Virus record (IMG/VR): IMGVR_UViG_3300033146_000595
Span: 1 to 54,814 of that record
Source: a virus
Lineage: Duplodnaviria; Caudoviricetes
Length of the DNA stretch: 54,814 bases
Direction: 5' to 3' (one strand)
The translations under genes and the position numbers were made by a program. Below, piece by piece: positions 1,291 through 36,403 of the stretch (positions are counted from its first letter, which is position 1; the number at the start of each line of letters is the position of its first letter). Below the pieces are notes generated by a model that was not told the origin of the DNA, did no database searches, and was given only the letters and a program-made list of their open reading frames with translations.

Positions 1291-1319
1291 CGCATGAATT
1301 ACATATACCATTATAGAAA
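1291..1319 (+). promoter_or_regulatory. Phage-specific promoter motif, copy 1
   Basis: CGCA TGAAT TACAT ATACCA TTATAGAAA directly upstream of RBS of ORF 1338. Confidence 0.75.
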
Positions 1320-1337
1320 GATAGAGGAGGAGAAATA

Positions 1338-1607
1338 ATGGAAAATTTAGATCGAATTTTTAACATAGAGAAGAACAAGAAATGGATGACATTTGGTGTT
1401 TACGAAATGGATGCTAACACAAGCACAATCGAACGAACATGTAAGGCTATGAATGTAGAAACAAGAATAGTAAATATGGAGGGCGATGTTGAGGGTGTTC
1501 ACGCCAAATTGAAAGCATTAGAGTTATACACGATTGATGTTGTCTTTGGTGAAATGGTCAAGTTAGTTATTATGAACGCGCTATTATTACAAGAAGAGGA
1601 AGAGTAA
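1338..1607 (+). CDS. Hypothetical early protein
   Basis: gaggagg RBS; lies between promoter motif and hairpin. Confidence 0.75.
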   Translation: MENLDRIFNIEKNKKWMTFGVYEMDANTSTIERTCKAMNVETRIVNMEGDVEGVHAKLKALELYTIDVVFGEMVKLVIMNALLLQEEEE

Positions 1608-1624
1608 GTTAAACACTTATTCTT
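1600..1624 (+). terminator. Cassette-closing hairpin
   Basis: aagagtaagt-taaac-acttattctt plus T tract. Confidence 0.6.
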
Positions 1625-1641
1625 TGCTTTTTACCTAAACT

Positions 1642-1670
1642 CGCACATTTTACATATACCATTATAGAAA
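1642..1670 (+). promoter_or_regulatory. Phage-specific promoter motif, copy 2
   Basis: CGCA CATTT TACAT ATACCA TTATAGAAA; 1623-1670 matches 1272-1319 at 44/48 nt. Confidence 0.75.
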
Positions 1671-1689
1671 ACTAAAGGAGGTTTTTATA

Positions 1690-1893
1690 ATGAAATTCAG
1701 TTTTATGAAGATTTTAGGAATTGGTATACTAGCCAGCATTGGAACAAATGCGGTAGTAAACACAGCAAGTAGAATTAGAAGAGACAGACTTGAAGATGAA
1801 AACTATCAAGAAGAGATTAGAAGAAAAAGAGAAGAAAGAGAAACTCGCAAAGCAGAGAAAGCAGCTAGAAAAGCAGCGGCTAAGACTGTCTGA
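1690..1893 (+). CDS. Small membrane-anchored charged protein
   Basis: Hydrophobic N-terminus, R/E/K-rich helical tail, aaggagg RBS. Confidence 0.75.
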   Translation: MKFSFMKILGIGILASIGTNAVVNTASRIRRDRLEDENYQEEIRRKREERETRKAEKAARKAAAKTV

Positions 1894-1919
1894 AGTAGAG
1901 TAAACTCTGCTTCTTTTTT
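1892..1919 (+). terminator. Cassette-closing hairpin
   Basis: gaagtagag-taaa-ctctgcttc-tttttt. Confidence 0.65.
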
Positions 1920-1951
1920 CTTTATATTTTAAAAAATAGGAGGAGAAAGAG

Positions 1952-2224: not shown

Positions 2225-2227
2225 TAT

Positions 2228-2256
2228 CGCATAAATTACATGCCTCTTTATAGAAA
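2228..2256 (+). promoter_or_regulatory. Phage-specific promoter motif, copy 3
   Basis: CGCA TAAAT TACAT GCCTCT TTATAGAAA. Confidence 0.75.
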
Positions 2257-2273
2257 GAAAGAGGAGGAATAAT

Positions 2274-2507: not shown

Positions 2508-2546
2508 CGTTGTTTGCGTAAATTAAACTATAGGAGGATTTTAATT

Positions 2547-3314: not shown

Positions 3315-3540
3315 ATTATTAATGATTACCGCGGGTATTGGGTTTTTTACCGCCGGAGTATTTTCTGGAAAACAAATCCAGAAATCATCACATAAAAAGA
3401 AAACCGTATACGCTGGGACATTACAGGTATATTATGTAAACGACTCACCTGAATTATATTTAGCTTTAACCGTGCCACCAGAAGATTTAGTAAATGCAGC
3501 GGACGTTGTATTAAACGTTAGTAATGAAAAAGTTAAATAG
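3304..3540 (+). CDS. Small membrane-anchored protein
   Basis: N-terminal TM helix; AGTLQV...PELYLAL C-terminal domain. Confidence 0.7.
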   Translation: MKNKLLMITAGIGFFTAGVFSGKQIQKSSHKKKTVYAGTLQVYYVNDSPELYLALTVPPEDLVNAADVVLNVSNEKVK

Positions 3541-3567
3541 CATGAAATACATACCGTATTATAGAAA
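3539..3567 (+). promoter_or_regulatory. Phage-specific promoter motif, copy 4
   Basis: AGCA TGAAA TACAT ACCGTA TTATAGAAA. Confidence 0.7.
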
Positions 3568-5063: not shown

Positions 5064-5092
5064 CGCGTAAAATACATAGGCTATTATAGAAT
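5064..5092 (+). promoter_or_regulatory. Phage-specific promoter motif, copy 5
   Basis: CGCG TAAAA TACAT AGGCTA TTATAGAAT. Confidence 0.7.
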
Positions 5093-6291: not shown

Positions 6292-6320
6292 CGCAGATTT
6301 AACATTGTCTATAATGAATA
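6292..6320 (+). promoter_or_regulatory. Phage-specific promoter motif, copy 6
   Basis: CGCA GATTT AACAT TGTCTA TAATGAATA. Confidence 0.65.
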
Positions 6321-8411: not shown

Positions 8412-8440
8412 CGCAGATTATACATGGCTTATAATGAGGG
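8412..8440 (+). promoter_or_regulatory. Phage-specific promoter motif, copy 7
   Basis: CGCA GATTA TACAT GGCTTA TAATGAGGG. Confidence 0.7.
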
Positions 8441-18649: not shown

Positions 18650-18870
18650 TGGATGCAAAACAAAAGACATATTTAATTAATGATAAAGAAGTTACAGAAG
18701 CAGTGTTTATAAATGAATTAAATTATCAGTTGAAGTTGGAGAAGCGACAAAACATTAGCCATGGTAAATTTACACAGGATGAACTGTTTAGTGTGGTTAT
18801 GAATAATGAAAAAAAATCAACATTCTTCGAAGTGGGTAATAAGAAATTTAAATGTTATCCGAACGCATAA
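18649..18870 (+). CDS. Hypothetical protein
   Basis: gaggagg RBS, coupled to the helicase stop. Confidence 0.65.
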   Translation: MDAKQKTYLINDKEVTEAVFINELNYQLKLEKRQNISHGKFTQDELFSVVMNNEKKSTFFEVGNKKFKCYPNA

Positions 18871-18892
18871 ATTACATTGCCTACTATAGAAA
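18864..18892 (+). promoter_or_regulatory. Phage-specific promoter motif, copy 8
   Basis: CGCA TAAAT TACAT TGCCTA CTATAGAAA. Confidence 0.75.
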
Positions 18893-18906: not shown

Positions 18907-19173
18907 ATGAACGATAACAATTTTAAAAAGTTGGTTTATGCAGGATTTGGTTTGATTTTCTTAAACGGTATTAAAAATAGAGTACTACGCATCAGACGAA
19001 ACAACAAAAGGGTTGAGACAATTAATGAAATAGTTGAAACAATCAACGATGTTGGCGAGATGGGTATGGGAACTGTTGACTGTGTTAAGGAACTTACTAG
19101 AATTGTGGTAAACCATGATAAGAAAATTATTGATATTCAAAACAATCCAAAACTTAAGAAGAAGAAGGTCTAA
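18907..19173 (+). CDS. Small membrane-anchored protein (start moved to ATG 18907)
   Basis: gaggaggag RBS precedes MNDNNFKKL; the track's TTG start lies inside the promoter motif. Confidence 0.7.
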   Translation: MNDNNFKKLVYAGFGLIFLNGIKNRVLRIRRNNKRVETINEIVETINDVGEMGMGTVDCVKELTRIVVNHDKKIIDIQNNPKLKKKKV

Positions 19174-19190
19174 CACAGACTTTTTTCTTC
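19158..19190 (+). terminator. Cassette-closing hairpin
   Basis: gaagaagaaggtct-aacac-agacttttttcttc. Confidence 0.6.
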
Positions 19191-19199
19191 TATTGTTTG

Positions 19200-19228
19200 C
19201 GCAAAAAATACATTGCCTACTATAGGAG
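19200..19228 (+). promoter_or_regulatory. Phage-specific promoter motif, copy 9
   Basis: CGCA AAAAA TACAT TGCCTA CTATAGGAG, abutting the RBS. Confidence 0.75.
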
Positions 19229-22294: not shown

Positions 22295-22323
22295 CGCATC
22301 AAATACATACCTCTTTATAGAAA
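22295..22323 (+). promoter_or_regulatory. Phage-specific promoter motif, copy 10
   Basis: CGCA TCAAA TACAT ACCTCT TTATAGAAA; 22315-22338 identical to 1662-1685. Confidence 0.75.
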
Positions 22324-22483: not shown

Positions 22484-22512
22484 CGCACATATTACATGGT
22501 CCATAATAGAAA
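22484..22512 (+). promoter_or_regulatory. Phage-specific promoter motif, copy 11
   Basis: CGCA CATAT TACAT GGTCCA TAATAGAAA. Confidence 0.75.
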
Positions 22513-23208: not shown

Positions 23209-23237
23209 CGCACTAAATACATAGTCTTTTATAGAGA
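23209..23237 (+). promoter_or_regulatory. Phage-specific promoter motif, copy 12 (heads the nuclease-RNAP operon)
   Basis: CGCA CTAAA TACAT AGTCTT TTATAGAGA. Confidence 0.7.
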
Positions 23238-23311: not shown

Positions 23312-23647
23312 ATGATGAGAGAGACAGGTAAAAATGGGTATCAATCAGTAGTCAAGAATAAGTTGAAGAAACAATTTCCCGACTGCGAAGTACACAAGTT
23401 AGACCCAAATGATATTCAGGGTAGTCCAGACTTACTAATGCTATGTCCAATAACATGGGCCACATTAGAAGTTAAGGGTAGTAGTAAATCAAAAAGACAA
23501 CCCAACCAAGAGTACTACGTGAAGAAGCACGATAGTATGAGTTTTTCAAATATTATATTTCCCGAAAATGAAAAAGAAGTTTTTGACAGATTACATATAC
23601 ACGTTAAACACTTTAATAAAGGAGAAGGAGAACATAATGATATTTAA
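23312..23647 (+). CDS. VRR-NUC domain nuclease (Holliday-junction-resolvase-like)
   Basis: QGSPDL...LEVK...QPNQEYY PD-(D/E)xK pattern. Confidence 0.8.
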   Translation: MMRETGKNGYQSVVKNKLKKQFPDCEVHKLDPNDIQGSPDLLMLCPITWATLEVKGSSKSKRQPNQEYYVKKHDSMSFSNIIFPENEKEVFDRLHIHVKHFNKGEGEHNDI

Positions 23648-24278
23648 TGAACATAAGAAATTAGAAGGACAACACGCTTTCTTAGGCGCGAGTACATACC
23701 ATTGGTTAAGATGGGATGAGGATACGCTTGAGAAAAGATACTATGGTAGATATTCAAAAACTATAGGAACGGCACTTCACGAGTTAGCGGCAGATTTAAT
23801 AAGTAACAAAATTAAATTGGCAAAGAGTGATAAGAAAATAATTATCATAACACTCACTAAACTAATGATACCAAGAGGTGCGTATGATCCAGAAGAAATA
23901 TTAAACAATCTAATGTCATTCGTTAATGATGCTATTGGATTTAGAATGGCTGCCGAGGTAATATTATTTTACTCACACAGTTGTTTTGGCACAACAGATA
24001 CTATAGTATTCGATGAATTCAATAAGATTCTAAGGATACACGATTATAAATCAGGAATCACACCATCCAAAATGGACCAGTTAATGATTTATGCTGCCCT
24101 ATTTTGTTTGGAGTATAAAAAGAATCCATTCGATTTTGAAACGGAATTACGAATATACCAAAACGGGGAAGTAATGATATTTACCCCAGAACCAACAGAG
24201 ATCGAAGGTGTAATGAATTTAATAGTTTTTAAAAATAAATCAATTTTAAAATTTTTAGAAAGGGAGTATAGAAGATGA
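23637..24278 (+). CDS. PD-(D/E)xK exonuclease (RecB/Cas4-like) (start moved to ATG 23637)
   Basis: GTALHE...E...FGTTD...IHDYKSG...QLMIYA. Confidence 0.75.
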   Translation: MIFNEHKKLEGQHAFLGASTYHWLRWDEDTLEKRYYGRYSKTIGTALHELAADLISNKIKLAKSDKKIIIITLTKLMIPRGAYDPEEILNNLMSFVNDAIGFRMAAEVILFYSHSCFGTTDTIVFDEFNKILRIHDYKSGITPSKMDQLMIYAALFCLEYKKNPFDFETELRIYQNGEVMIFTPEPTEIEGVMNLIVFKNKSILKFLEREYRR

Positions 24279-27238
24279 GTCATGACATAAATGATTTAAC
24301 TGATGAAGAATACTTACTTCACTATGGTACTCCCAGACATTCGGGTAGATATCCTTGGGGTAGTGGTGAAGAACCATTCCAAAGAAGTGGTGATTTTTTA
24401 AGTAGAATAGACGACCTAAAAAAACAAGGTATGACCCCAACACAAATAGGCGAATCATTGGGTATTAAAACAACTCGTCTTAGAGCATTGGAGACAATAG
24501 CAAAGAATATTAGAAGAAAAGATCTATATTCCAAAGCTAAAACACTAAAGGAAGAAGGATTTAGTAATGTTCAAATTGCTGATAGACTCGGTCTTCGTGG
24601 GGAATCATCTGTTAGATCGTTATTAAACGCCGACTCATTGGCTAGGATGGCGATAGCAGATGACTTAACAAACACATTACGTGAATTAATTGACACGCGT
24701 GGTATGATTGATATTGGTGCTGGTGTACCTAGACAATTGGGTGTATCTAAAGAAAAAATGGATGTTGCCATAGAGATGTTAAAAAATGAAGGTTATGTGG
24801 TACATGGGAACAGAGTCCCACAAGTTACAAACATTGGTAAACTAACAACACTAAAAGTTATATGTCCTCCAGGCACACCATCATCCGCTATATATAATTA
24901 CGGGGATATTAAATCGGTATATGATGTGACATCATTCGATGGTGGTAAAACATTAAAACCAGCGTTTCGATATCCCGCTAGTCTAGATTCAAACAGGATA
25001 CAAATTAGATATGCAGAAGAAGGCGGTACTGAAAAAGATGGGGTTATAGAGTTAAGAAGAGGTGTGGATGATATTTCATTAGGCACATCAAACTATTCAC
25101 AGGTGCGTATATTAGTTGATGGAACACATTATTTAAAAGGTATGGCCGTTTATTCGGATAACATGCCAGATGGTGTAGATGTTATATTTAACACTAATAA
25201 AAAATCAAATGTTTCTAAAATGGACACTATGAAAAAAATAAAAGATGACCCATTGAATCCATTCGGTTCCACTATTAAAGAAAGAGGTGGACAATCAGAA
25301 TGGACTGATGAAAATGGTGTTGTGAGGTTGACCGTAATAAATAAGAGATCTGATGAAGGTGATTGGGGTAATTGGTCAAGGGAGATATCGGCTCAATTTC
25401 TATCAAAACAACCACAAAAGTTAATAGATAGACAGATTGATATTTCAATAAAAGCGAAAGTAGCCGAATTTGATGAAATTATGTCACTAACAAACCCAAC
25501 GGTCAAGAAAGCGTTATTAGAATCGTTCGCTGACGAATGTGACGCAGCCGCGGTTAGTTTGAAAGCTGCTGGATTACCAGGAGCTATGTATAAAGTTATA
25601 TTACCAGTGACATCACTAAAGGATAACGAAGTATATGCACCCCATCTAGATGATGGTTCCATGGTCGCACTAGTTAGGTATCCTCATGGTGGTACATTTG
25701 AGATACCAACACTAACGGTTAATAATAGGAACAAAGAGGCTATTAACATAATGACAAAAAACGCAACCGACGCGATAGGTATTAACGCGGTCGTAGCTGA
25801 TATTATGTCAGGAGCAGACTTTGATGGTGATACCGTAATGGTAATACCAATGAGTGATAGAATAAAAATTAAATCACAAAACCCACTAAAGGATTTAAAA
25901 GGGTTTGATACCATATTAGCATATGGACCAGATGAAACACACGTTGATTCTGATGGTAATGAGAGATACTATAGAGGTGGGAAAGAGTTTGCAATACTAA
26001 GTGAAACAAACACCCAAAATCAAATGGGTATCATATCAAATTTAATTACAGATATGACGTTACTTGGGGCTCCCAATGATGAATTAGCTAGAGCAGTTAA
26101 ACATTCAATGGTTATCATAGATGCTAATAAACATGGACTAGACTATAAGCAGTCTGAAGCAGATAATGGTATAAAGGCATTACATAAGAAGTACCAGACA
26201 CAAGTCGGTCCATCGGGTAAGATACATGGTGGAGCAGCTACATTAATATCTAAATCTAAGTCAAAAGCACCAGTTGGTGAAAGAAAGTTGGGTATGTATG
26301 TACATAAAGACACACTCAACGAACTAACACTGTTTGATGCTGATAATAAAATCTATTTAGATGAGAAGACTGGTCGTTTCTATACCGATAAAGAAAAGAG
26401 AACCATATACATTGATCGAAAGACTGGTGAGAAGCTATATACGTACACTAATCGGGAGTATATGCAGACGGCATATAAGAATGCTGCTGGAAAAACAAAA
26501 AAAGCATCGGTTATAGTTAAGGATGAGAAACTTTATTACAAAGGTGAAGATGGTACGTATAAAGAGATCACGAATGAAATAATTAAATCGATACCCGCCC
26601 TCACGTACTCAAAGAAGATGGCCGAAACCAACGATGCACACACACTATCATCAGGTACACCACAAGAAGAGGCTTATGCTGAGTATGCCAATCAACTTAA
26701 AGCACTTGGTAACCTTGCTAGACTTGAAACATTAACTATCACTAGTACACCTATGTCTAAGTCCGCTAAGGCGGCATACATAGAAGAGTATAAAACCCTT
26801 GTATTTAAGATAGATGAGGCATTACTCAATGCTCCAAGAGAAAGACAAGCACAAACAATGGCCGCATCAATTGTGCAATTGAGAAAACAAGAGAATCTTC
26901 GCATGACTCATGAGGAAGAGAGAAAGATTAGACAACAAGAGCTAAGTAGGGCCCGTATGCGTGCTGGTGCATCAAGAAAGATGATAGAAATCACACAAAA
27001 TGAATGGAATGCTATACAAGCGGGTGCTATAAGTACTCATAGATTAAAACAAATTATTGCTAATGCAAACATGGACATACTTAGACAGTTCGCAATGCCT
27101 AGAGCAAGATTAACATTGAGTCCTGCAAAACTAAGAAGAATAGAGAACATGTCGAGGTCTGGTTATACTACGGCCGAGATAGCTAAAGCATTAGGTGTAT
27201 CAGTTAGTACTGTATCTAAGACATTGAGAGGAGAATAA
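24275..27238 (+). CDS. Single-subunit two-barrel RNA polymerase (YonO/RdRP-like) with terminal HTH domains
   Basis: GADFDGD (25811-25831), VRYP, QVR..GTHYLKG, MGIISNL, LARAVKHSMVIIDANKHG in the order found in QDE-1-type RdRPs; HTHs at both ends. Confidence 0.8.
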   Translation: MSHDINDLTDEEYLLHYGTPRHSGRYPWGSGEEPFQRSGDFLSRIDDLKKQGMTPTQIGESLGIKTTRLRALETIAKNIRRKDLYSKAKTLKEEGFSNVQIADRLGLRGESSVRSLLNADSLARMAIADDLTNTLRELIDTRGMIDIGAGVPRQLGVSKEKMDVAIEMLKNEGYVVHGNRVPQVTNIGKLTTLKVICPPGTPSSAIYNYGDIKSVYDVTSFDGGKTLKPAFRYPASLDSNRIQIRYAEEGGTEKDGVIELRRGVDDISLGTSNYSQVRILVDGTHYLKGMAVYSDNMPDGVDVIFNTNKKSNVSKMDTMKKIKDDPLNPFGSTIKERGGQSEWTDENGVVRLTVINKRSDEGDWGNWSREISAQFLSKQPQKLIDRQIDISIKAKVAEFDEIMSLTNPTVKKALLESFADECDAAAVSLKAAGLPGAMYKVILPVTSLKDNEVYAPHLDDGSMVALVRYPHGGTFEIPTLTVNNRNKEAINIMTKNATDAIGINAVVADIMSGADFDGDTVMVIPMSDRIKIKSQNPLKDLKGFDTILAYGPDETHVDSDGNERYYRGGKEFAILSETNTQNQMGIISNLITDMTLLGAPNDELARAVKHSMVIIDANKHGLDYKQSEADNGIKALHKKYQTQVGPSGKIHGGAATLISKSKSKAPVGERKLGMYVHKDTLNELTLFDADNKIYLDEKTGRFYTDKEKRTIYIDRKTGEKLYTYTNREYMQTAYKNAAGKTKKASVIVKDEKLYYKGEDGTYKEITNEIIKSIPALTYSKKMAETNDAHTLSSGTPQEEAYAEYANQLKALGNLARLETLTITSTPMSKSAKAAYIEEYKTLVFKIDEALLNAPRERQAQTMAASIVQLRKQENLRMTHEEERKIRQQELSRARMRAGASRKMIEITQNEWNAIQAGAISTHRLKQIIANANMDILRQFAMPRARLTLSPAKLRRIENMSRSGYTTAEIAKALGVSVSTVSKTLRGE

Positions 27239-27239: not shown

Positions 27240-27524
27240 ATGATGAATACTAATAAAGCATTACGCCTTACAACAGTAGACAACCCTTATGATCCATTTA
27301 CTCATTGGAAAGAATGGCTGCTATTTGATACAAATGCAGGATACCATACCTGTTCTAGATTGGCAAGAGTCACGTACATTAGTGATGCGTTCACTGAACC
27401 AGAGATATATGAACGTATTGAAGAAGGAATGGACGTGTTGATCACTACTGGGTCTCTGTCTAAAGATGGATCCCTAATAGAATACAAAAAGGTAATAAAA
27501 GAAACCAACATTGCTAAACAATAG
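27240..27524 (+). CDS. Conserved hypothetical protein downstream of the RNAP
   Basis: LTTVDNPYDPF...W..FD...GYHT...LAR motif. Confidence 0.75.
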   Translation: MMNTNKALRLTTVDNPYDPFTHWKEWLLFDTNAGYHTCSRLARVTYISDAFTEPEIYERIEEGMDVLITTGSLSKDGSLIEYKKVIKETNIAKQ

Positions 27525-27660: not shown

Positions 27661-27740
27661 CACCCGTAGGGGGGTCTCTCAAAATATACACCCCCCTCAG
27701 CATCGCCCCGCTCTTAAAAATTCCTCCGGGGGTAAAATTT
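27661..27740. other. Putative cos site / physical genome end
   Basis: GC-rich island (gggggg...cccccc...catcgccccgctct aaaaa ttcctccggggg) between the last early gene and the TerS-like/HNH genes. Confidence 0.55.
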
Positions 27741-29142: not shown

Positions 29143-29535
29143 ATGGCTTCTATATTAAATTCAGCGACCGACTCAATACTAGAACAGGTAAAAAAAATAT
29201 TGGGATTGGCCAGGGAATATACCTCATTTGACATCGATATTGCAATACATATTAATTCAGTGTTTAGTAACCTGACTCAAATGGGCGTTGGTCCGGAGGA
29301 TGGGTTTACTATAGATGGATATGACCAATGTTGGTCAGACTTCACCACATCAAATATATTAAAAACACAACAAATCAAATCATATTTACCATTAAAGGTT
29401 AGATCAATATTTGATCCACCACAAAACGCCAATGTGTTAAAAGCGATGAATGATTCCATCGCCGAATTAGAACATAGGCTTTTTATTGAGGAAGAAAATA
29501 GTAGATATGTCGAATCCGTTGTGGAGGAGGAATAA
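29143..29535 (+). CDS. Putative head-tail connector/adaptor
   Basis: SILEQVKKILG...FDIDI.IHINSVFS.LTQMGVGP...FDPP...ELE.RL. Confidence 0.6.
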   Translation: MASILNSATDSILEQVKKILGLAREYTSFDIDIAIHINSVFSNLTQMGVGPEDGFTIDGYDQCWSDFTTSNILKTQQIKSYLPLKVRSIFDPPQNANVLKAMNDSIAELEHRLFIEEENSRYVESVVEEE

Positions 29536-29536
29536 C

Positions 29537-30070
29537 ATGATAAAAAAACATTTATCTCATCATGGAATCAAAGGGCAAAGATGGGGAGTAAGGCGTTATC
29601 AGAATCCCGATGGGTCGTTGACCGCATTGGGACAAAAGAAGTATAATACTGATAAGGACTATGACTCGAGATATAACAAAGCGTCTAGTGACGCACTTAC
29701 TAGAGACTATAAAGAAAGAGACGCGGCCGCAGCAAAAGCAATTATAACCGGTACTGGAAAAGCAGCCACACAAACATCTGTCGCTATAGGTAACTCTGGT
29801 AAAAACAAATCTAAAGTTATAAATACTAAAAATTATGGTAAAATTTCAGATAATGATTTGCGGGCTAGGATAAATCGCATTAATATGGAAAATACATATG
29901 GTGAATTAACCGGTGATGCAAAAAGAGTTAGGACTGGTTCGGATTGGACTAGAGAAATATTACAAACCACTGGAGCTGTTATTGGTGTAGCTGGTACCGC
30001 AGCTGGTATAGCATTAACGATTGCCCAAATTAGAAACAAACAAGTTCCAAAAGCCAAAGGAGGCCCATAA
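29537..30070 (+). CDS. HHGIKGQxWGVRR-motif basic protein 1 (putative internal head protein)
   Basis: MIKKHLSHHGIKGQRWGVRRYQNPDGSLT; ggaggagg RBS; start moved to 29537. Confidence 0.75.
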   Translation: MIKKHLSHHGIKGQRWGVRRYQNPDGSLTALGQKKYNTDKDYDSRYNKASSDALTRDYKERDAAAAKAIITGTGKAATQTSVAIGNSGKNKSKVINTKNYGKISDNDLRARINRINMENTYGELTGDAKRVRTGSDWTREILQTTGAVIGVAGTAAGIALTIAQIRNKQVPKAKGGP

Positions 30071-30074: not shown

Positions 30075-30557
30075 ATGGTAAAAAAATATTTATCACACCA
30101 TGGAATAAAAGGGCAAAAATGGGGAGTAAGAAGGTATCAAAATAATGATGGATCGTTAACGGCACAGGGTAGAAGAAAGTATAACGTTAATGATGATGGT
30201 ACCACGCAAATGAAAAAAAGTTATAAGAATAAACAACGCGCTATAGGCGCTGTTAAAACCCTTGTTGGTACATCCGTTGTATTAAGGGGTGGTTTAGGAA
30301 TAAGTAATGCAAAAAGAGCGAATCTCGGAACCAGATCTAATAGGAGATTTTTACAAACTGGTAATATTAATCGTAGCGTGACCAATATGTTAATTGGGTC
30401 TATAGTTGTGGGAGCCGGGGTAAAAAACTTTATTAATTCGGTGAAGGATCAAACATTCAATTCAACTGGTATGGGGGCAACTCCTGAATATTTCGAAGGT
30501 AAACCCAAAACCAGAAAACAAGTAATAGCTCAAGAAAAAAGAAATAAAGGTAAGTAG
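30075..30557 (+). CDS. HHGIKGQxWGVRR-motif basic protein 2
   Basis: MVKKYLSHHGIKGQKWGVRRYQNNDGSLT; start moved to 30075. Confidence 0.75.
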   Translation: MVKKYLSHHGIKGQKWGVRRYQNNDGSLTAQGRRKYNVNDDGTTQMKKSYKNKQRAIGAVKTLVGTSVVLRGGLGISNAKRANLGTRSNRRFLQTGNINRSVTNMLIGSIVVGAGVKNFINSVKDQTFNSTGMGATPEYFEGKPKTRKQVIAQEKRNKGK

Positions 30558-30567: not shown

Positions 30568-32313
30568 ATGGCGTTATCTAATACTGCAACACCTATATAT
30601 TATGGTGAGTTTAGAGAAGCCGTAGTTAGAGGTGATATACCAGTATGTAGAGAAATCTCTATGGAGATGAATCGAATTGATGATTTAATCAAAAATCCAG
30701 GTATATACTATGATGATTTAGCAATAAACGGTTTTATCGAATATTGTGAAAAAGAATTAACCCTTACCGATGGATCTGATTTAAAAATGTTAGACACGTT
30801 TAAGTTGTGGTCAGAACAAGTATTAAGTTGGTTTTATTATGTGGAACGGAGTATATATGTAAAAGATGAAAGTGATAAACACGGCCACTATATAAAAAAG
30901 ATGATAAAGAAAAGATTGATTAACAAGCAATACTTAATAGTATCAAGGGGTGCCGCGAAGTCGATGTACGCATCAGTACTTCAAAGCTATTTTTTAAACA
31001 TAGACCCTAGTACGACATATCAAATAACCACTGCTCCAACCATGAAGCAGGCTGATGAAGTAATGTCTCCGATAAAAACAGCGATAACGAGAGCCAAAGG
31101 CCCTTTATTTCAGTTTTTAACAGAAGGATCTTTGCAGAACACAACTGGTTCAAAAGCTAATAGAGTTAAACTAGCCTCTACTAAAAGGGGTATCGAAAAC
31201 TTCCTTACTGGTTCTATCTTAGAGATAAGACCTATGAAGATTGACAAATTACAAGGATTAAGATGTAAAGTCGCTTCTATTGATGAGTGGTTATCGGGCG
31301 ATGTTAGAGAAGATGTTGTTGGAGCAATTGAACAAGGTGCTTCTAAAGTTGATGACTATTTGATAATAGCCGTATCATCTGAGGGTACTGTTCGTAATGG
31401 TTCTGGAGATACTATAAAGATGGAATTATTAGACATTCTAAAAGGGGAGTATGTTAACCCCCATGTTTCAATATTTTACTACAGATTGGATAGCGTTGAG
31501 GAAGTTGGAAACCCTGATATGTGGATTAAAGCTAATCCTAATTTAGGTAAAACAGTTTCTTACGAAACTTATCAATTGGATGTAGAAAGAGCTGAAAAAG
31601 CTCCCGCTGTTAGAAATGACATCTTGGCAAAAAGGTTTGGGATACCGATGGAGGGGTTTACTTATTACTTTACGTATGAGGAAACACTACCGCATCCTAA
31701 AAAGTCTTTTTGGGGGTTACCATGTGCACTTGGTGTGGATTTATCTCAAGGGGATGACTTCTGTGCATTCACATTCCTGTTCCCACTTCAAAATGGTGAA
31801 TTTGGTGTGAAAACTAGAAGTTACATAACAGACTTTACTTTATTAAAGTTGCCAACGGCAATGCGTTTTAAGTATGACGAATTCATGAGAGAAGGGTCGC
31901 TCGTTGTGCACGAAGGTGCTATACTCGATATGATCCAAGTCTATGAGGATTTAGACGAACATATAATAAAAGAAGAGTATGATGTAAGATGTCTTGGGTT
32001 TGACCCATATAACGCAAAAGATTTTATCGAAAGATGGCAATTAGAAAACGGTCCTTATGGGATTGTTAAAGTAATACAAGGAGCAAAAAGCGAATCGGTT
32101 CCTTTAGGAGAATTGAAAAATTTAGCAGAGGAAAGATTATTATTATTTGATGAAGACTTAATGACGTTTGCTATGGGTAACGCTATAACATTAGAAGACA
32201 CTAATGGGAATAGAAAACTTTATAAAAAACGTAGAGAAGCAAAGATTGACAATGTCGCAGCTTTAATGGACGCGTTCATTGCATATAAATTAAATAAGGA
32301 GGCGTTCGAATGA
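30568..32313 (+). CDS. terL: Terminase large subunit
   Basis: Walker A VSRGAAKS, Walker B ASIDE, coupling SSEG, nuclease GVDLS, FDPYN, KIDNVAALMDA. Confidence 0.92.
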   Translation: MALSNTATPIYYGEFREAVVRGDIPVCREISMEMNRIDDLIKNPGIYYDDLAINGFIEYCEKELTLTDGSDLKMLDTFKLWSEQVLSWFYYVERSIYVKDESDKHGHYIKKMIKKRLINKQYLIVSRGAAKSMYASVLQSYFLNIDPSTTYQITTAPTMKQADEVMSPIKTAITRAKGPLFQFLTEGSLQNTTGSKANRVKLASTKRGIENFLTGSILEIRPMKIDKLQGLRCKVASIDEWLSGDVREDVVGAIEQGASKVDDYLIIAVSSEGTVRNGSGDTIKMELLDILKGEYVNPHVSIFYYRLDSVEEVGNPDMWIKANPNLGKTVSYETYQLDVERAEKAPAVRNDILAKRFGIPMEGFTYYFTYEETLPHPKKSFWGLPCALGVDLSQGDDFCAFTFLFPLQNGEFGVKTRSYITDFTLLKLPTAMRFKYDEFMREGSLVVHEGAILDMIQVYEDLDEHIIKEEYDVRCLGFDPYNAKDFIERWQLENGPYGIVKVIQGAKSESVPLGELKNLAEERLLLFDEDLMTFAMGNAITLEDTNGNRKLYKKRREAKIDNVAALMDAFIAYKLNKEAFE

Positions 32314-32314: not shown

Positions 32315-32833
32315 ATGAATAAAAAATATTTAATTCATCGCATTAGAAGCGATACGGATGATGTTTTAATTCATTACGGTACCAAAGGACAAAAATGGGG
32401 TATTAGAAGATATCAGAATCCCGATGGGTCTTTAACATCTGCTGGAACTCGTAGATATGGTACTGTTGAAAACATGGATCGAACAAGGTCTAGAAATCAA
32501 AGAGTAGCAATTGGTGTCGGGGTGACGACGGCCGTTGTTGCTGGGACCATCATTGCTCGTAAAAATCGTAGTTTAAAAAAAAGAATAAGAGTGAATGATG
32601 CGGCAGATGCTGCTAGAAAATCTAAGCAAAAAGCCACAAACGCTAAGAGAGCTGCTACAATAGCAAAAAAGAAAGCTAATGGAACTTGGAGGACTGCTAC
32701 CAAAATATCGATCCCAAAAGGCTCAGATGTTAAAATAACTAAGTATAGTAGTACTCTTGCTGGAACCCCATCCAATATTGTCAAAAGTGTATCTTATTAT
32801 TTAAACGTTTTTGGTGGTACTCTTAAACCATGA
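32315..32833 (+). CDS. HYGTKGQKWG-motif basic protein 3
   Basis: DVLIHYGTKGQKWGIRRYQNPDGSLT. Confidence 0.75.
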   Translation: MNKKYLIHRIRSDTDDVLIHYGTKGQKWGIRRYQNPDGSLTSAGTRRYGTVENMDRTRSRNQRVAIGVGVTTAVVAGTIIARKNRSLKKRIRVNDAADAARKSKQKATNAKRAATIAKKKANGTWRTATKISIPKGSDVKITKYSSTLAGTPSNIVKSVSYYLNVFGGTLKP

Positions 32834-33309
32834 TAAAAAAACATTTATCTCATCATGGAATTTTAGGGCAAAAATGGGGAGTAAGGCGTTATCAGAATCC
32901 CGACGGATCGTTGACCACTAGAGGCGTCAAACGTTATCAGCGATTGGACCAAAAGTGGATTAATAAAAAGTCCGATAGGGTGTATGATAAAGCCATGAAA
33001 GATTCGAAACCGGAAATGAAAGCCTATGTAAAAGAACTACGAACAAAGGCTCCAAATGCTGGTAAAAGAACCATATTTAATATGTATAATAAAAAATTGG
33101 CATCGGTGATGAGAACCAAAACAAAAGACATTAGGTCACCATCTGGTAAAGTAATAGAATGGGTTGCCAAAAGAGGAACCGTTGGGGTTCATATGGCGTT
33201 GGCAGACCAGGGTTACGATATTAATAAATTAAAAAACGGTGTATGGGCTGATGGAAGAATCGCCTATAGAAAAAATCTAGTAGACATGCAAGAACAGAAA
33301 GGTGGTTAA
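32830..33309 (+). CDS. HHGILGQKWG-motif basic protein 4
   Basis: MIKKHLSHHGILGQKWGVRRYQNPDGSLT; 5' end nearly identical in DNA to 29537. Confidence 0.75.
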   Translation: MIKKHLSHHGILGQKWGVRRYQNPDGSLTTRGVKRYQRLDQKWINKKSDRVYDKAMKDSKPEMKAYVKELRTKAPNAGKRTIFNMYNKKLASVMRTKTKDIRSPSGKVIEWVAKRGTVGVHMALADQGYDINKLKNGVWADGRIAYRKNLVDMQEQKGG

Positions 33310-33312
33310 GCC

Positions 33313-34566
33313 ATGAGTGTAATTGATAGATTTAAACATGCTTGGAATTCGTTCATCGGCGAAGAGATAAAATCACCAATCGGTTATCATGATCTAGGGT
33401 ATTCAACTAGTTATAAACCCGATAGAGTTAGGTATTCGAATGGTAATGATAGAACCATGGTTACTGCTATATACAATAGAATAGCCATAGACTGTTCGAC
33501 GATACCTTTAAAACATGCTCGGGTGGACGATGATGATAGATTTTTAGAAATAATAAAATCCGGTTTAAACGAGTGTTTGACGATTGGTGCTAATAAGGAC
33601 CAACCATCTAGAGCGTTTATACAAGACATAGTTATGTCACTATTTGATGAAGGAAGTGTCGCTATAGTACCAATAGATACGTCCGTTGACATCACTAAAG
33701 GTAGTTTCGACATAAATAGTATGAGAACCGGAAGAATCCTACAGTGGTTTCCAGATCACATTCAGGTTGAAGTGTATAATGACAGAAAAGGTGTAAGAGA
33801 AACCTTGACGCTTCCTAAAAAATCTGTAGCAATTATAGAGAATCCTCATTATGCAGTAATGAATGAGAGAAACTCAGTTTTACAAAGACTTATCCGTAAA
33901 TTAAGCATTCTAGATATGATAGACGAACAGTCTGGATCTGGTAAGCTAGATTTAATAATACAATTACCTTATGTGATTAAATCGGAAGCTCGAAGAAAGC
34001 AAGCCGATCTCAGAAGGAAAAGTATGGAAGATCAATTGGCGAATTCCAAATTCGGGGTAGCATATACTGATGGAAGTGAAAAAATAACACAACTGAATAG
34101 AGCTGTGGAAAACAACTTATTGAAACAAATTGAGTACTTAACGAGTATGCTAAACGGCCAGTTAGGAATCAATGCGGCGATATTAGATGGATCTGCAAAC
34201 GAGGTAGTTATGTTAAATTATATCACACGCACACTTGAACCGATTTTGGCAGCTATATCACAAGAGTTTAATAGGAAGTTCTTAACAAAAACTGCAAGAA
34301 CTCAAGGACAGACGATTAGATACTTTAACGATCCTTTCAGGTTAGTGACGGTAACAAACTTGGCTGAAATAGCAGACAAATTCACAAGAAACGAAATAAT
34401 GACTTCTAATGAAATGAGACAAGTAATTGGTATGAGACCAAATAAAGATCCTAGAGCGGATGAACTCCGTAATAAGAATCTTAATGAGGCCGAGCCAAAA
34501 ACCGAGGAAGTTGTTAAAAAAGAAGAAGTCGTAGATAAAATAAAAAAAGGAGAAAAAGATGAGTAA
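33313..34566 (+). CDS. Portal protein (HK97-type)
   Basis: Position after terL; IYNRIAID...AN..Q..RAF...MTSNEMR..IGM.P. Confidence 0.88.
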   Translation: MSVIDRFKHAWNSFIGEEIKSPIGYHDLGYSTSYKPDRVRYSNGNDRTMVTAIYNRIAIDCSTIPLKHARVDDDDRFLEIIKSGLNECLTIGANKDQPSRAFIQDIVMSLFDEGSVAIVPIDTSVDITKGSFDINSMRTGRILQWFPDHIQVEVYNDRKGVRETLTLPKKSVAIIENPHYAVMNERNSVLQRLIRKLSILDMIDEQSGSGKLDLIIQLPYVIKSEARRKQADLRRKSMEDQLANSKFGVAYTDGSEKITQLNRAVENNLLKQIEYLTSMLNGQLGINAAILDGSANEVVMLNYITRTLEPILAAISQEFNRKFLTKTARTQGQTIRYFNDPFRLVTVTNLAEIADKFTRNEIMTSNEMRQVIGMRPNKDPRADELRNKNLNEAEPKTEEVVKKEEVVDKIKKGEKDE

Positions 34567-36403
34567 ACAATGGGACTTTAAAGGTTGGGCCACAAGACAT
34601 AATGTGTTGTGTGGTGACGGACGCACCATTAAACCAGGCGCATTCGAACACAACGATAATCAAACAGTACCTTTAGTTTGGAATCACAACCATAAAGACG
34701 CCGATAATGTATTAGGACACGCATTATTAGAGTATAGAGATGAAGGAGTATATGCTTACGCAAAATTCAACGACACTAGTCAAGGACGAAATGCAAAAGA
34801 ATTAGTGCGTAATAAAGATATAACAGCTTTATCAATATACGCTAATAAATTAAAACATAACATCAAAGATGTAATTCATGGTAACATTAGAGAATTAAGT
34901 CTTGTTTTAGCGGGATCAAATCCTGGTGCATATATCGAAACGGTTATGGCGCATGGTGAAGGTGATGATAGATCTGAAGAAGCTATTATTACAAACAATG
35001 CAGAGTTAGAATTACTTCACACTGGAACTGAAAAAGAACTTAGTGAAGAAGCAAAAACGGCATTAGCTATTAAAGAAGCAGCGAATCTTAAGCATGCAGA
35101 AGAATTAAAAGTTGCAAAAGAAGCAGCGGATCTTAAACATGCCGAGGAAGAAAAACAAAAAGAAGTAGATGCTAAAAAACAAAAAGAAATAGACGATAAG
35201 AAACCTAAGAAAAAATCCGAGGAGGAAAAGAAGAAAATGAAAGATAAAACAATAAAAGAAGTCTTTGAAACATTAGACGACGACCAAAAATTAATGGTGT
35301 ACGCGCTTGTAGGTGCGGCACAAGAAGGGGACAACAGTATGAAACAAAATTTATTTGACAAAGAAATCGATAATGAAGACGAGTTCTTAACTCACGCGGA
35401 ATTTGAAACAGCATTAACAGAAGCAAAACGTAATGGGTCTTTAAAGGAAGCGTTTATCGCACATAGTATCAGTAATATTAATAACTTATTCCCAGAAGTA
35501 CAAAATTTAAACAAACAACCTGAGTTAATCTCAAGAGATGTTCAATGGGTTGCTGGAGTTATGGCTGGGGTATCAAAATCACCATTCTCAAGAGTTAAAT
35601 CAACAGGTGCTAACCTTACTGCTGATGAAGCAAGAGCAAAAGGGTATGTTAAAGGCGCACAAAAAGTTGAAGAAGTTATTACATCTTTAAAACGTGTAAC
35701 TACGCCTACAACTGTTTACAAATTACAAAAATTAGACCGTGATGATGTAATCGATATCACTGATTTCGATGTAATCGTATTCATGAAATCTGAAATGAGA
35801 ATTATGTTAAACGAAGAATTAGCAAGAGCATTCTTAATTGGTGATGGACGTTCAGGAGCAAGTCCTGATAAAGTAAACCCATTAAACATTCGCCCAATCT
35901 GGGGAGACGATCCAGTTTATACTGTGGTTCGTGAATTAGTTCCAGCGGCGGAAGATACAGCAGCTCAAAAAGCTAAAGCATTTATTCAAGACATCATCCG
36001 TTCGAGAAAATTATACAAAGGTTCAGGAAATCCTGCATTATACACTACGGAAGATCAATTAGTGGAAATGTTATTAATGGAAGACACTAATGGTAGAGTG
36101 ATTTATGACTCAGTTGCTAAATTGCAAACTGCTTTACGTGTAAGTAAAATAGTAACAGTTGAAGTAATGGAAGGTGTAAACCGTGTTATTTCAGAGGATC
36201 AATGGGACTTAATGGGCATTCTTGTAAACTTAACTGATTACAATGTTGGTGCTGATAAAGGCGGACAAGTAAACATGTTTGATGATTTCGATCTTAACTT
36301 TAATAAATACGAGTACTTAATTGAAACTCGTTGTTCTGGAGCTTTAAAGAAACCTTATAGTGCAGTTGTATTTGAATCTAAAGGCCCAGTAGTAGCAGGT
36401 TAA
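34559..36403 (+). CDS. Prohead protease-scaffold-major capsid fusion protein
   Basis: N-terminal HK97-type protease (FKGWA, PLVWNH, LSI, ELSLV..GSNPGA), charged linker, C-terminal capsid domain (ELARAFLIGDG...ETRCSG). Confidence 0.88.
   Translation: MSKQWDFKGWATRHNVLCGDGRTIKPGAFEHNDNQTVPLVWNHNHKDADNVLGHALLEYRDEGVYAYAKFNDTSQGRNAKELVRNKDITALSIYANKLKHNIKDVIHGNIRELSLVLAGSNPGAYIETVMAHGEGDDRSEEAIITNNAELELLHTGTEKELSEEAKTALAIKEAANLKHAEELKVAKEAADLKHAEEEKQKEVDAKKQKEIDDKKPKKKSEEEKKKMKDKTIKEVFETLDDDQKLMVYALVGAAQEGDNSMKQNLFDKEIDNEDEFLTHAEFETALTEAKRNGSLKEAFIAHSISNINNLFPEVQNLNKQPELISRDVQWVAGVMAGVSKSPFSRVKSTGANLTADEARAKGYVKGAQKVEEVITSLKRVTTPTTVYKLQKLDRDDVIDITDFDVIVFMKSEMRIMLNEELARAFLIGDGRSGASPDKVNPLNIRPIWGDDPVYTVVRELVPAAEDTAAQKAKAFIQDIIRSRKLYKGSGNPALYTTEDQLVEMLLMEDTNGRVIYDSVAKLQTALRVSKIVTVEVMEGVNRVISEDQWDLMGILVNLTDYNVGADKGGQVNMFDDFDLNFNKYEYLIETRCSGALKKPYSAVVFESKGPVVAG

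Follow-up and report, generated by a model that had tools for sequence, protein, structure and literature searches.

The window, a stretch of 54,814 nucleotides, is a complete, circularly permuted copy of the 55-kb genome of a cos siphophage, and this phage carries its own transcription system. As judged from its sequence and modeled fold, the central component is a 110-kDa single-chain RNA polymerase (RNAP) of the YonO/QDE-1 kind. Since this RNAP occurs together with matching promoter-like copies and a candidate head-loading tag, the phage may begin transcription without the host enzyme. The best explanation as a whole, towards which we lean, is an injected two-barrel RNAP that reads its own promoters and is loaded into the head by a peptide tag.

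Genome and polymerase operon

The phage belongs to a group that includes Lactococcus phage 1706, Faecalibacterium phage FP_oengus, and clusters of Arthrobacter, Gordonia, and Streptomyces phages. The polymerase operon is the final operon before cos, where the right end matches those of ReqiPoco6 (annotated 3' cos overhang), Arcadia, Scap1, and 1706. A scan covering 20 early open reading frames (ORFs) found no sigma-like gene among them.

23312..23647, + strand: first gene of the RNAP operon, 111 aa; the syntenic Arcadia gene is annotated as a RuvC-like endonuclease
23568..24278, + strand: exonuclease (phrog_3953), second gene of the operon
24275..27238, + strand: single-chain two-barrel RNAP, 987 aa, 109.7 kDa, with helix-turn-helix (HTH) modules at both ends
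24395..24787, + strand: N-terminal helical region with HTH-like modules, residues 41-171 (predicted secondary structure; weak phrog ParB/HTH matches)
25817..25831, + strand: DFDGD catalytic loop, residues 515-519, invariant in 47 aligned homologues
27113..27232, + strand: C-terminal sigma-region-4-like HTH, residues 947-986 (HTH_23, 37.2 bits; Sigma70_r4_2, 26.8 bits)
27240..27524, + strand: conserved small gene 3' of the RNAP, 94 aa (phrog_4303), final gene before the genome end
27666..27714, + strand: cos-proximal G6...C6 element and probable physical right genome end (about 27712-27714), matching the right ends of relatives

The 111-aa product of the first operon gene had no match in a PHROG search. 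ORF 24275-27238 is almost certainly a two-barrel polymerase, as the initial annotation had proposed when it described a 987-aa enzyme with built-in HTH domains: the full-length match to phrog_4291 "RNA-dependent RNA polymerase" (residues 9-985, E=0, 1160 bits), the DFDGD loop, the HTH, and the fold matches all agree. R468-x-P470 is likewise invariant in the 47 aligned homologues, and the C-terminal HTH lies above the curated Pfam cut-offs for HTH_23, HTH_38, and Sigma70_r4_2. In Foldseek searches, the AF2 model (pLDDT 79.8) matched QDE-1 (6.5e-7) and structures of siphophage two-barrel RNAPs (8f72, 3.5e-6; 8f5m, 4.4e-6; 8h2m, 1.9e-3), among them phage P32 gp64 RNAP (3.5e-6) and P74 gp62 (4.4e-6), and in BFVD it matched P23-45 A7XX94 (E 4.1e-5). 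The TM-scores are low (0.21-0.29), which is not strong, yet is expected for a multi-domain model.

Contrary to the initial impression, the enzyme is not new: the polymerase family and its presence in 1706 and actinophages are already on record in earlier reports, which noted its YonO-like nature in 2010 and 2021 (PMC2919709; bioRxiv 10.1101/842583). HTH modules at both polymerase ends have also been reported for the family (10.1101/842583). We found no biochemistry on the phrog_4291 family in the literature.

A promoter-like motif in the non-structural arm

We searched the window for the 26-nt motif CGCR-N5-WACAT-N7-WATRR with the pattern CGCRNNNNNWACATNNNNNNNWATRR, allowing at most one mismatch. 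This returned 13 matches, of which 12 are + strand; chance would give 0.58 for the two strands together, and none of 100 shuffles reached 13. The lone minus-strand match (848-873, 1 mismatch) is probably due to chance.

1291..1316, + strand: promoter-like motif, class I
1642..1667, + strand: promoter-like motif, class I
2228..2253, + strand: promoter-like motif, class I
3539..3564, + strand: promoter-like motif, class I, 1 mismatch
5064..5089, + strand: promoter-like motif, class I
6292..6317, + strand: promoter-like motif, class II (3' end TATAATGA), precedes the replication block
8412..8437, + strand: promoter-like motif, class II (3' end TATAATGA)
18864..18889, + strand: promoter-like motif, class I
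19200..19225, + strand: promoter-like motif, class I, 3' end abutted by the ribosome site GGAGG
22295..22320, + strand: promoter-like motif, class I
22484..22509, + strand: promoter-like motif, class I
23209..23234, + strand: promoter-like motif, class I, preceding the RNAP operon; position kept in 64/69 relatives
19157..19191, + strand: terminator-like hairpin immediately 5' of motif 19200
1892-1913, 5477-5498, 6552-6573, and 19421-19449: similar terminator-like hairpins

The ten class I copies are tight, end in TATAG, and score 34.9-43.1 bits on their position weight matrix (PWM); the class II copies at 6292 and 8412 score 2.8 and 10.0 on the class I PWM, within the shuffle maxima. All 12 + strand copies are intergenic and lie directly 5' of a ribosome site and ATG, with the ribosome site 5-20 nt past the motif in 11 of them. 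All are in the non-structural arm and the structural arm holds no + strand copy, which bears out the earlier description of twelve non-sigma70 elements confined to the early arm, including one in front of the RNAP operon (23209).

The motif is not confined to this phage. All five near-complete relatives have 7-20 coding-strand copies (reversed control, 0-1). Among the cultured relatives, Arcadia has 8 and a further copy ahead of its polymerase operon, five similar sequences with 1-2 mismatches lie at 24.4-29.6 kb in 1706, and Scap1 has 3. At 64 of 69 IMG/VR loci, a copy precedes the polymerase by 913-1408 nt (median 962), whereas a control kilobase inside the polymerase gene holds the motif at 0/69. 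The relatives bearing it are phages of Firmicutes and Actinobacteria, hosts that cover GC contents of 31-53%. This conservation alongside the polymerase in phages of two host phyla, as read from the sequences, is new here and, with the fixed copy before the polymerase, speaks for a promoter specific to the phage, not for a site read by host sigma.

Could the motif nevertheless be a variant host sigma-A promoter that has only a -10 box and overlaps an operator, bound by a regulator from phage or host? In that case the large protein would be mainly a DNA-binding regulator or have another nucleotide-polymerizing role, and in many databases its annotation goes no further than HTH DNA-binding protein. 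The box at the 3' end looks like a -10 hexamer (TATAAT in Arcadia and in class II, TATAGT in 1706; TATAAT, TATTAT, or TATAGT in class II and several relatives), so that a contribution of host sigma-A is possible. However, the ten class I copies end in TATAGA, missing the conserved final T of the -10 box, and have no -35 box at 16-18 nt, the would-be spacer being occupied by the conserved CGCR and WACAT boxes. Phages of Lactococcus, Arthrobacter, Streptomyces, and uncultured hosts all share the element, as would be expected if the phage itself encodes its reader, and the catalytic DFDGD and R-x-P residues are invariant. We therefore consider this reading improbable. That the motif behaves as a promoter without sigma-70 design is supported, and it is quite probably the promoter of the two-barrel polymerase.

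In the mechanism that we propose, the HTH modules of the RNAP would recognize CGCR-N5-WACAT-N7-WATRR, and initiation would take place at or just past the TATA-like 3' box. The twelve elements would drive short early units bounded by terminators (at 1.3-6.2 and 18.9-23.2 kb), those at 6.3 and 8.4 kb the replication block, and an element of the same type the polymerase operon. Because the polymerase gene thus sits behind its own promoter type, the first polymerase molecules would most likely arrive inside the virion.

Possible virion association of the polymerase

Virion association is indirectly supported, by analogy with phage 1706. [quoted passage not shown]" Since two small ORFs of the non-structural arm (orf62 and orf71) were also labeled structural, co-purifying proteins are possible in 1706. 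The structural label in ReqiPoco6 was copied from 1706, so that the two represent a single depositor annotation.

The alternative is a polymerase that stays outside the virion, as in T7. The right end with the polymerase operon would enter first, host RNAP would make small amounts of polymerase from a weak host-type promoter or the -10-like box, and the phage enzyme would then take over at the 12 motifs; the N-terminal peptide would serve the enzyme itself or bind a host factor. In lambda-like cos phages, the last-packaged end exits first, and if this applies here the polymerase operon, last before cos, would be the first in. The -10-like 3' box fits this alternative too, as does YonO, the nearest characterized enzyme, which is made after induction and transcribes late genes (PMC5467207). 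Against it, the conserved upstream element of the operon in 64/69 relatives is the phage motif, with a 3' box that in most is TTATGAAG and not a TAnnnT hexamer; sigma-70-like sites are not enriched in the window (74 against 85.6 expected; 65 against 75.1 expected); the 1706 homologue is labeled structural; and the disordered, near-invariant polymerase peptide shares its start with head-module proteins. We thus regard a non-virion polymerase as rather unlikely and slightly favor a virion-borne one.

A candidate head-loading peptide

Virion delivery with protease-cleaved head loading is plausible from the sequence features below.

24314..24367, + strand: near-invariant N-terminal peptide LLHYGTPRHSGRYPWGSG, codons for RNAP residues 14-31, inside a predicted disordered stretch
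29534..30070, + strand: DUF7211-type small basic protein 1, 178 aa, pI 10.2, upstream of TerL
30075..30557, + strand: DUF7211 small basic protein 2, 160 aa, pI 11.1, upstream of TerL
30568..32313, + strand: TerL (profile match)
32315..32833, + strand: DUF7211-type small basic protein 3, 172 aa, between TerL and portal
32830..33309, + strand: DUF7211-type small basic protein 4, 159 aa, between TerL and portal
33313..34566, + strand: portal protein (profile match)
34559..36403, + strand: fusion of prohead protease (S78), scaffold helix, and major capsid protein, 614 aa
35012..35020, + strand: LLH, residues 152-154, disordered linker after the protease domain; candidate processing site
35339..35347, + strand: MKQ, residues 261-263, disordered linker before the capsid domain; candidate processing site

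RNAP residues 1-39 are predicted to be disordered (pLDDT below 50). Of 120 polymerase homologues, 116 have the peptide [LIV]-x-H-[YF]-G...GSG and the other 4 are N-terminally truncated; the His of the peptide falls at residue 6 to 106, so the leader varies in length. Among + strand frames of at least 60 aa (85 frames, 18,318 aa), [LIV]-x-H-[HYF]-G has exactly 5 matches, one in the RNAP and one in each of the four small basic proteins (pI 10.2-11.1), against a shuffled expectation of 0.39. One of the four passes the curated Pfam DUF7211 cut-off of 27 (30.0); the rest score 25.7, 26.8, and 23.9. DUF7211 genes flank TerL and portal in Arcadia, Scap1, 1706, and 39 of 85 loci examined, and DUF7211 heads the repeated units of polyproteins with GNAT and glutamine-deamidase domains. 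No papers mentioning DUF7211 were found.

In the capsid fusion, both linkers are disordered in the model, and a hydrophobic-x-His tripeptide is found at each in 27 of 32 homologues (His missing in 5/32 at each); at the second, these have M-K-H where the window has Q, not H. The repeats previously noted in the scaffold are present as LLH152, LKH177, and LKH192.

The variable acidic leader and the [LIV]-x-H-[YF]-G...GSG peptide may mark the polymerase for the prohead. The DUF7211 proteins, whose genes lie next to those of terminase and portal, have the same L-x-H-[HY]-G start, and the prohead protease would cut at hydrophobic-x-His, the tripeptide also seen at the fusion linkers. Such head loading and maturation are plausible, and a protease-processed loading tag is our tentative reading of the peptide. 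It is just as conceivable that the likeness among polymerase N-terminus, DUF7211, and capsid linkers is coincidental or reflects different functions, with DUF7211 being membrane-active in the virion or lysis-related and the polymerase peptide being, e.g., a glycine-rich priming or DNA-contact loop. The echo of the four head-module proteins in the RNAP start, claimed initially, holds for the pentapeptide but ends after 5-6 residues, where the spacing diverges (G-x-x-W-G after H-Y-G versus 5-10 residues and then GSGRY..GSG). hhalign aligned 13 columns (probability 1.3%, E 0.039), the Pfam DUF7211 model did not match the RNAP N-terminus, and the bare tripeptide is frequent by chance ([LIMV]-x-H occurs 9 times in the capsid fusion alone); homology is thus statistically weak. 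Against coincidence, the extended pentapeptide is found in no other protein of this genome, follows a variable leader at the N-terminus of both families, and occurs in both protein classes of every cultured relative examined (1706, Arcadia, and Scap1), and both motif-bearing 1706 proteins are labeled structural.

Comparison with known systems

The four small proteins match Pfam DUF7211 (PF23847) at their N-termini, and relatives have 1-7 repeats per protein; this is a 25-residue family, and the polymerase N-terminus falls outside its model. T4 internal proteins have a capsid-targeting sequence that is cleaved by gp21 at L/I-x-E. They resemble the present case in a short N-terminal leader ending in hydrophobic-x-charged, common to head cargo and capsid/scaffold proteins, whereas the candidate site here is hydrophobic-x-His and the capsid protein is itself fused to the protease, an enzyme of the S78/HK97 type.

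N4 gp50 and crAss-like phi14:2 gp66 are injected polymerases that read phage-specific early promoters. The virion RNAPs of N4 and crAss-like phages have 2,100-3,500 residues and belong to podophages, and that of N4 is T7-like, not two-barrel. The window enzyme has 987 residues, its gene has its own promoter type, and its model shows weak fold similarity to 6vr4 (Foldseek, E 0.18).

YonO of the Bacillus prophage SPbeta is similar in being a phage-encoded single chain of ~100 kDa that has a DxDGD loop and is homologous to the RdRP/QDE-1 bipartite core, and the 1706 protein is one of five YonO-like families listed in PMC2919709. PMC5467207 assigns YonO to late genes after induction and leaves open its promoter and need for extra factors. 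The window enzyme, compared with YonO through the literature, differs in its HTH at both ends, N-terminal peptide, and candidate promoter, and, unlike YonO, probably acts early.

Thermus phage P23-45 also is a siphophage with two-barrel RNAPs, so that virion enzymes of this type were already known from siphophages, contrary to the initial impression; its virion enzyme transcribes pre-early genes (PMC10770324). P23-45 has two enzymes, the virion RNAP gp96, fused to the tape measure protein, and the non-virion gp64, whereas the window has one free-standing gene at the genome end, without tape-measure fusion and with built-in HTH.

Conservation of the promoter-like motif

Repeat finding and pattern search recovered 12 copies of a 26-nt motif, CGCR-N5-WACAT-N7-WATRR, all on the + strand, against 0.58 expected on both strands. 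A position weight matrix (PWM) built from the ten TATAG-type copies (class I) scored these copies at 34.9-43.1 bits, and the next best site in the window reached 10.0 bits. The two class-II copies, at 6292 and 8412, have CGCAGATT..ACAT..TATAATGA in common and precede the replication block. All 12 copies are intergenic and stand before early and middle genes, with a ribosome site and start codon ~20-75 nt downstream in 11 of them; the exception is copy 23209, which precedes the polymerase operon (23.2-27.5 kb) with a leader of ~80 nt. The structural arm of the window holds no copy, and the count and placement given in the initial annotation (twelve copies in the early arm, one in front of the polymerase operon) were borne out. 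Since several copies lie directly 3' of hairpin-plus-T terminators, the early arm appears to be split into small promoter-terminator units.

Hairpin-plus-T terminators with a common AT-rich tail (CTTTATATTTTAAAAAA) delimit these units at 1892-1913, 5477-5498, 6552-6573, 19157-19191, and 19421-19449, and 1-20 kb contains 17 terminator-like sites (8.3 expected). Just upstream of the polymerase-operon promoter, a 380-nt non-coding stretch is occupied by iteron-like direct repeats (TGTCACTTTTG) at 22910-23146, with at least six copies in three blocks spaced 97-102 nt. The window's repeats may represent an origin of replication or an array for a regulator. Arthrobacter phage Arcadia has GTGGCCAAAA-type repeats at the corresponding place (1660-2020 of locus L085).

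The motif had been described as unlike a sigma-70 promoter, and comparison with the host consensus (sigma-70/sigma-A; -35 and -10 hexamers 16-18 nt apart, TAnnnT in the -10) agreed with this. None of the ten class-I copies was flagged, sigma-70-like sites showed no enrichment overall, and the class-I 3' box, TATAGA, is missing the last T of the -10 hexamer. The scan did flag one class-II copy (6286-6315, TTAAAA-18-TATAAT, 10/12). No sigma-like gene was found among the 20 early ORFs scanned. Likeness of the 3' half of the motif (TATAG, then purines) to a T7 promoter was rejected: the likeness is superficial, and both register and enzyme class differ.

Applied to 80 IMG/VR loci bearing the polymerase gene (GC, 31-53%), the window's PWM detected the motif in most of them. 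Among the 69 loci with enough upstream sequence, the motif was found 913-1408 nt (median, 962) upstream of the codons for the polymerase N-terminus in 64, and a control kilobase within the polymerase gene contained it in none. All five near-complete relatives carry 7-20 coding-strand copies, against 0-1 for the reversed pattern. In cultured phages, Arcadia carries eight copies within 25-31 kb (CGCGTAAATTACAnGGGCTATAATGA) plus another ahead of the polymerase operon; Lactococcus phage 1706 carries five similar copies within 24.4-29.6 kb, with 1-2 mismatches, and three are present in Streptomyces phage Scap1. This conservation in relatives, read from sequence comparison, is the main new result. 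Because the motif has been kept together with the polymerase in Lactococcus, Arthrobacter, and Streptomyces phages, it is best explained by a phage-encoded reader, for which the polymerase, with its predicted helix-turn-helix (HTH) modules, is the obvious candidate.

The polymerase and its family

The polymerase (ORF 24275-27238, +; 987 aa, 109.7 kDa) is covered end to end by a match to phrog_4291, "RNA-dependent RNA polymerase." Its C-terminal HTH exceeds the Pfam cut-offs of HTH_23, HTH_38, and Sigma70_r4_2, and the Pfam RdRP model (PF05183) matched residues 507-626 below the cut-off (15.4 bits versus 23.8). The DFDGD loop lies at residues 515-519, and a DxDGD regular expression was positive at this loop in 119 of 120 homologues; in the remaining one, P0061, the expression stopped at an earlier DPDGD at residue 361. 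In 47 aligned homologues, 53-73% identical to the polymerase, D515, D517, and D519 of this loop and R468 and P470 of VRYPH are invariant, as are R278 and K288 in the preceding beta region. For the two-barrel branch, PMC2919709 lists eight invariant residues, including an R-x-P before DxDGD and basic residues of the first barrel.

The AlphaFold2 model (pLDDT, 79.8) has a disordered N-terminus (residues 1-39), a helical N-terminal region (41-171), beta-rich barrels, and two three-helix modules at the C-terminus. A fold search was required because a PDB sequence search with the polymerase gave nothing below E 0.5. Foldseek matched QDE-1 (7y7t; E 6.5e-7, probability 1.00), plant RDR2, the RNA polymerases (RNAPs) of phages P32 (gp64) and P74 (gp62), P23-45 gp96, and, weakly, the virion RNAP of crAss-like phage phi14:2, with TM-scores of only 0.21-0.29 for these matches. 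A viral structure library returned P23-45 A7XX94 and proteins named RdRP. On sequence and modeled fold, the protein is assigned to the YonO/QDE-1-like two-barrel group with a predicted role in DNA-templated RNA synthesis, and the initial description of a two-barrel RNAP with built-in HTH domains is well supported.

In the phage collection, megablast with the polymerase gene gave no match, and its relatives are detectable at the protein level only. By tblastn, the family was found in 250 of 50,697 phage records (249 matches near full length), including ~200 teaching-collection actinophages and the dairy phage 1706, and a metagenome protein collection yielded at least 8,000 homologues at E 1e-10, all 8,000 scored having passed. 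Family members are mostly annotated as "helix-turn-helix DNA-binding protein." The only named close homologue, P0006 (73% identical), comes from a Candidatus Izemoplasmataceae metagenome-assembled genome, which hints at the host group of the window's phage.

Both the family and its distribution are already known. The 1706 protein appears in PMC2919709 as one of five YonO-like families, its role being called an enigma. bioRxiv 10.1101/842583 describes the DxDGD motif and an HTH domain at either end, and proposes the protein as a signature of the actinophage supercluster together with phages of Lactococcus and Faecalibacterium. None of the words promoter, intergenic, and transcription appears in it. 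A search of a limited literature collection found no account of the promoter motif, the N-terminal peptide discussed below, or the biochemistry of the family, and no description of the cross-phylum conservation of the motif or of the peptide's link to DUF7211 proteins and capsid linkers. Within this collection, the impression that the combination is uncharacterised holds for the motif, the peptide, and the DUF7211/linker tie, but not for the polymerase family and its distribution.

Genome layout and cos end

All long ORFs of the window (54,814 nt) are on the + strand and GC is 33-41%; a tRNA scan found none, and an Rfam search of its full length at gathering thresholds returned no match. The structural module extends from ~27.9 kb to the window end and wraps to ~1.2 kb, with the following features.

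From 625: holin
From 29143: connector protein family
From 30568, +: large terminase subunit (TerL)
From 33313, +: portal
From 34559, +: protease-scaffold-capsid fusion
From 37076: major tail protein
39378-45272, +: ORF of 1,964 aa, probably tape measure (size and position)

The right ends of four cultured relatives match a GC-rich stretch at 27666-27714, and for one of these, ReqiPoco6, the end is annotated as a 3' cos overhang; the window is therefore taken to be a cos genome in permuted form, and the matches place its physical right end at ~27,712-27,714. The final block ahead of this end is the polymerase operon, as it is in 1706, Scap1, Arcadia, and ReqiPoco6. The same stretch carries a cos-proximal element, G6-TCTC-N-C6-TC(T/A)GCATCGCC, also present at the ends of four relatives' sequences (L082, L084, L085, and L087). 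It is kept across Lactococcus, Arthrobacter, Streptomyces, and Rhodococcus phages and at many IMG/VR contig ends, an apparent conservation that is unusually deep for a packaging site.

Several other features were noted. A 128-nt direct repeat (97% identical) has copies at 50527-50654 and 51527-51654, exactly 1,000 nt apart, within two adjacent genes (49870-50808 and 50822-51652) downstream of the tail genes, and three repeats with 195-nt spacing (70-85% identical; 42543-43031) lie inside the 1,964-aa ORF. Between ORF 28152-28685, which has HNH-like sequence without Pfam confirmation, and the connector protein gene, 28673-29137 encodes 154 residues that contain (EEIK)n and PAPKKK repeats; at the C-terminus of this protein, an SH3_3-like domain scores under the Pfam cut-off. 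The 1,283-aa protein at 11809-15660 has a DUF5906 P-loop domain (primase/helicase-like), and its syntenic counterpart, 1706 orf55, is annotated as helicase or DNA polymerase.

The N-terminal peptide, DUF7211 proteins, and capsid linkers

Near its start, the polymerase carries a peptide, [LIV]-x-H-[YF]-G followed by GSG, that is present in 116 of 120 homologues, the other four being N-terminally truncated. Its His falls anywhere from residue 6 to residue 106, which indicates a variable, often acidic leader, after which comes a near-invariant stretch, HYG(T/M)PR(H/R)SGRYPWGSG. Four homologous proteins (P0066, P0068, P0069, and P0080) have an extra 79-106 residues ahead of L-x-H-Y-G, so this sequence need not be near the N-terminus.

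Four small basic proteins (pI 10.2-11.1) flanking TerL have L-x-H-[HY]-G-x-x-G-x-x-W-G-x-R-R N-termini.

Start 29534, +: small basic protein
Start 30075, +: small basic protein
Start 32315, +: small basic protein
Start 32830, +: small basic protein

Against Pfam DUF7211 (PF23847; cut-off, 27 bits) they scored 30.0, 26.8, 25.7, and 23.9 bits, one of the four above the cut-off, and close relatives and multi-repeat DUF7211 proteins scored 37-152 bits. The initial annotation had held that the start of the polymerase echoes those of the small proteins. At the level of the pentapeptide this stands, [LIV]-x-H-[HYF]-G occurring in the genome only in the polymerase and the four small proteins (5 versus 0.39 expected), but profile comparison did not extend it: the DUF7211 model did not match the polymerase N-terminus, and hhalign aligned 13 columns at a probability of 1.3% (E 0.039). 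A function in common is put forward as a hypothesis from sequence, with common origin unproven.

The DUF7211 arrangement recurs in Arcadia gp07 (two repeats) and gp09, Scap1 gp06, and 1706 orf7 (two clear repeats), and in 39 of 85 loci; tblastn with a DUF7211 protein matched 8 records of the phage collection, a search too insensitive to gauge occurrence outside the polymerase-bearing group. Among the best 120 of 370 matches, longer DUF7211 proteins have the motif 1-7 times, typically every 150-250 residues, and in 100 of these 120 the initial 30 residues contain the first copy; in the same set, GNAT acetyltransferase domains are found in the units, and three proteins include a papain-fold glutamine-deamidase toxin domain. 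Such polyproteins resemble strings of cargo units with the motif at the head of each, as would be expected of a motif that marks where processing or loading takes place. Metagenomic examples (P0121-P0129 and others) reach 1,872 aa with 2-7 repeats, a length that may in part reflect the genetic code applied in gene prediction, and multi-repeat proteins also occur in cultured phages (1706 orf7 and Arcadia gp07).

In the capsid fusion (34559-36403, +; 614 aa), the model delimits the following parts.

Residues 1-118: protease
Residues 119-161: disordered
Residues 163-211: long helix
Residues 252-275: disordered
Residues 279-614: HK97-type capsid domain

Each disordered linker contains one tripeptide of interest, LLH152-154 and MKQ261-263. 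At each linker, the aligned tripeptide is hydrophobic-x-His in 27 of 32 homologues (e.g., LEHSD and MKHNVFD), the window's own second linker having Q instead of His. Such a bare tripeptide is frequent by chance. Because the fused protease must release itself and the tripeptide is conserved in otherwise variable linkers, it is a reasonable candidate for the cut site of this protease; it also corresponds to the L-x-H at the head of the polymerase and of the DUF7211 proteins. Complex prediction of the protease domain (1-150) with the polymerase N-terminus (1-45) gave 0.01 versus a mark of 0.32 and carries no weight either way. The portal (MSVIDRFKHAW) has hydrophobic-x-His at residues 7-9 (33331-33339), and Arcadia gp11 (7831-8442 of L089), between portal and capsid fusion, starts ..FLEHYSS; these may be chance occurrences or may add to the same processing set.

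Possible virion association and proposed mechanism

In the original 1706 GenBank record, the depositors applied the labels "structural protein" and "major structural protein" to eleven ORFs. The polymerase homologue (orf75) is one of these, as are the DUF7211 protein encoded ahead of TerL (orf7) and two small ORFs from the non-structural arm. This labeling reportedly came from virion mass spectrometry. RefSeq later named orf75 "RNA-dependent RNA polymerase." As independent virion evidence from Rhodococcus phages we rejected the "structural" label of ReqiPoco6, copied from 1706, and that of ReqiPepy6 gp012 (region 1-14000 examined), copied from 1706 gp06; GU580940 and GU580943, considered as sources of virion labels, are unrelated phages.

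We propose that the polymerase would bind CGCR and WACAT through its HTH modules, melt the TATA-like box, and initiate a short distance 5' of the ribosome site. Given the self-promoted operon and the structural label in 1706, we infer that a few polymerase molecules may be carried in the head, exit with the DNA, and start the early units, after which newly made polymerase would amplify transcription; late genes might be reached by transcription that runs on from the polymerase operon through the joined cos site. More speculatively, the N-terminal peptide would load the polymerase into the prohead, and the capsid-fused protease would trim it at hydrophobic-x-His, along with the DUF7211 cargo.

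A broader and rather doubtful reading, offered tentatively, is that L-x-His-(Tyr/His)-Gly serves as a general cargo address label in a very large group of siphophages of Gram-positive hosts. The capsid-fused S78 protease would then recognize and cut hydrophobic-x-His, freeing itself from the scaffold and capsid domains and releasing cargo from leaders or polyprotein arrays. This cargo (the promoter-specific polymerase, membrane-active DUF7211 proteins, GNAT acetyltransferases, and the glutamine-deamidase toxin) would all be injected with the DNA, allowing transcription and host take-over with no host enzyme, and one enzyme family would read the same 26-nt promoter grammar across >8,000 protein clusters and two bacterial phyla.

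If the polymerase reads the motif, it would represent a single-chain, factor-independent enzyme of compact size (110 kDa), with a short portable promoter functional in hosts of very different GC content. Such an enzyme would be of interest as a tool and, having a sigma-like HTH built onto its two-barrel core, for the evolution of transcription. Were it packaged as well by way of a short cleavable tag common to other cargo, that tag would give a general handle on injected proteins, and the odd genes between terminase and portal would be explained.

On our reading, the polymerase would work like the virion RNAPs of N4, crAss-like phages, and P23-45, from which it differs in being free-standing, at 987 aa, with predicted built-in HTH modules. 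The closest parallel for the tag is with T4-type capsid-targeting peptides, where cargo and capsid are cleaved at one consensus site; here, hydrophobic-x-His, which lies at both capsid-fusion linkers (27 of 32 homologues each) and at the cargo N-termini, is the candidate site.
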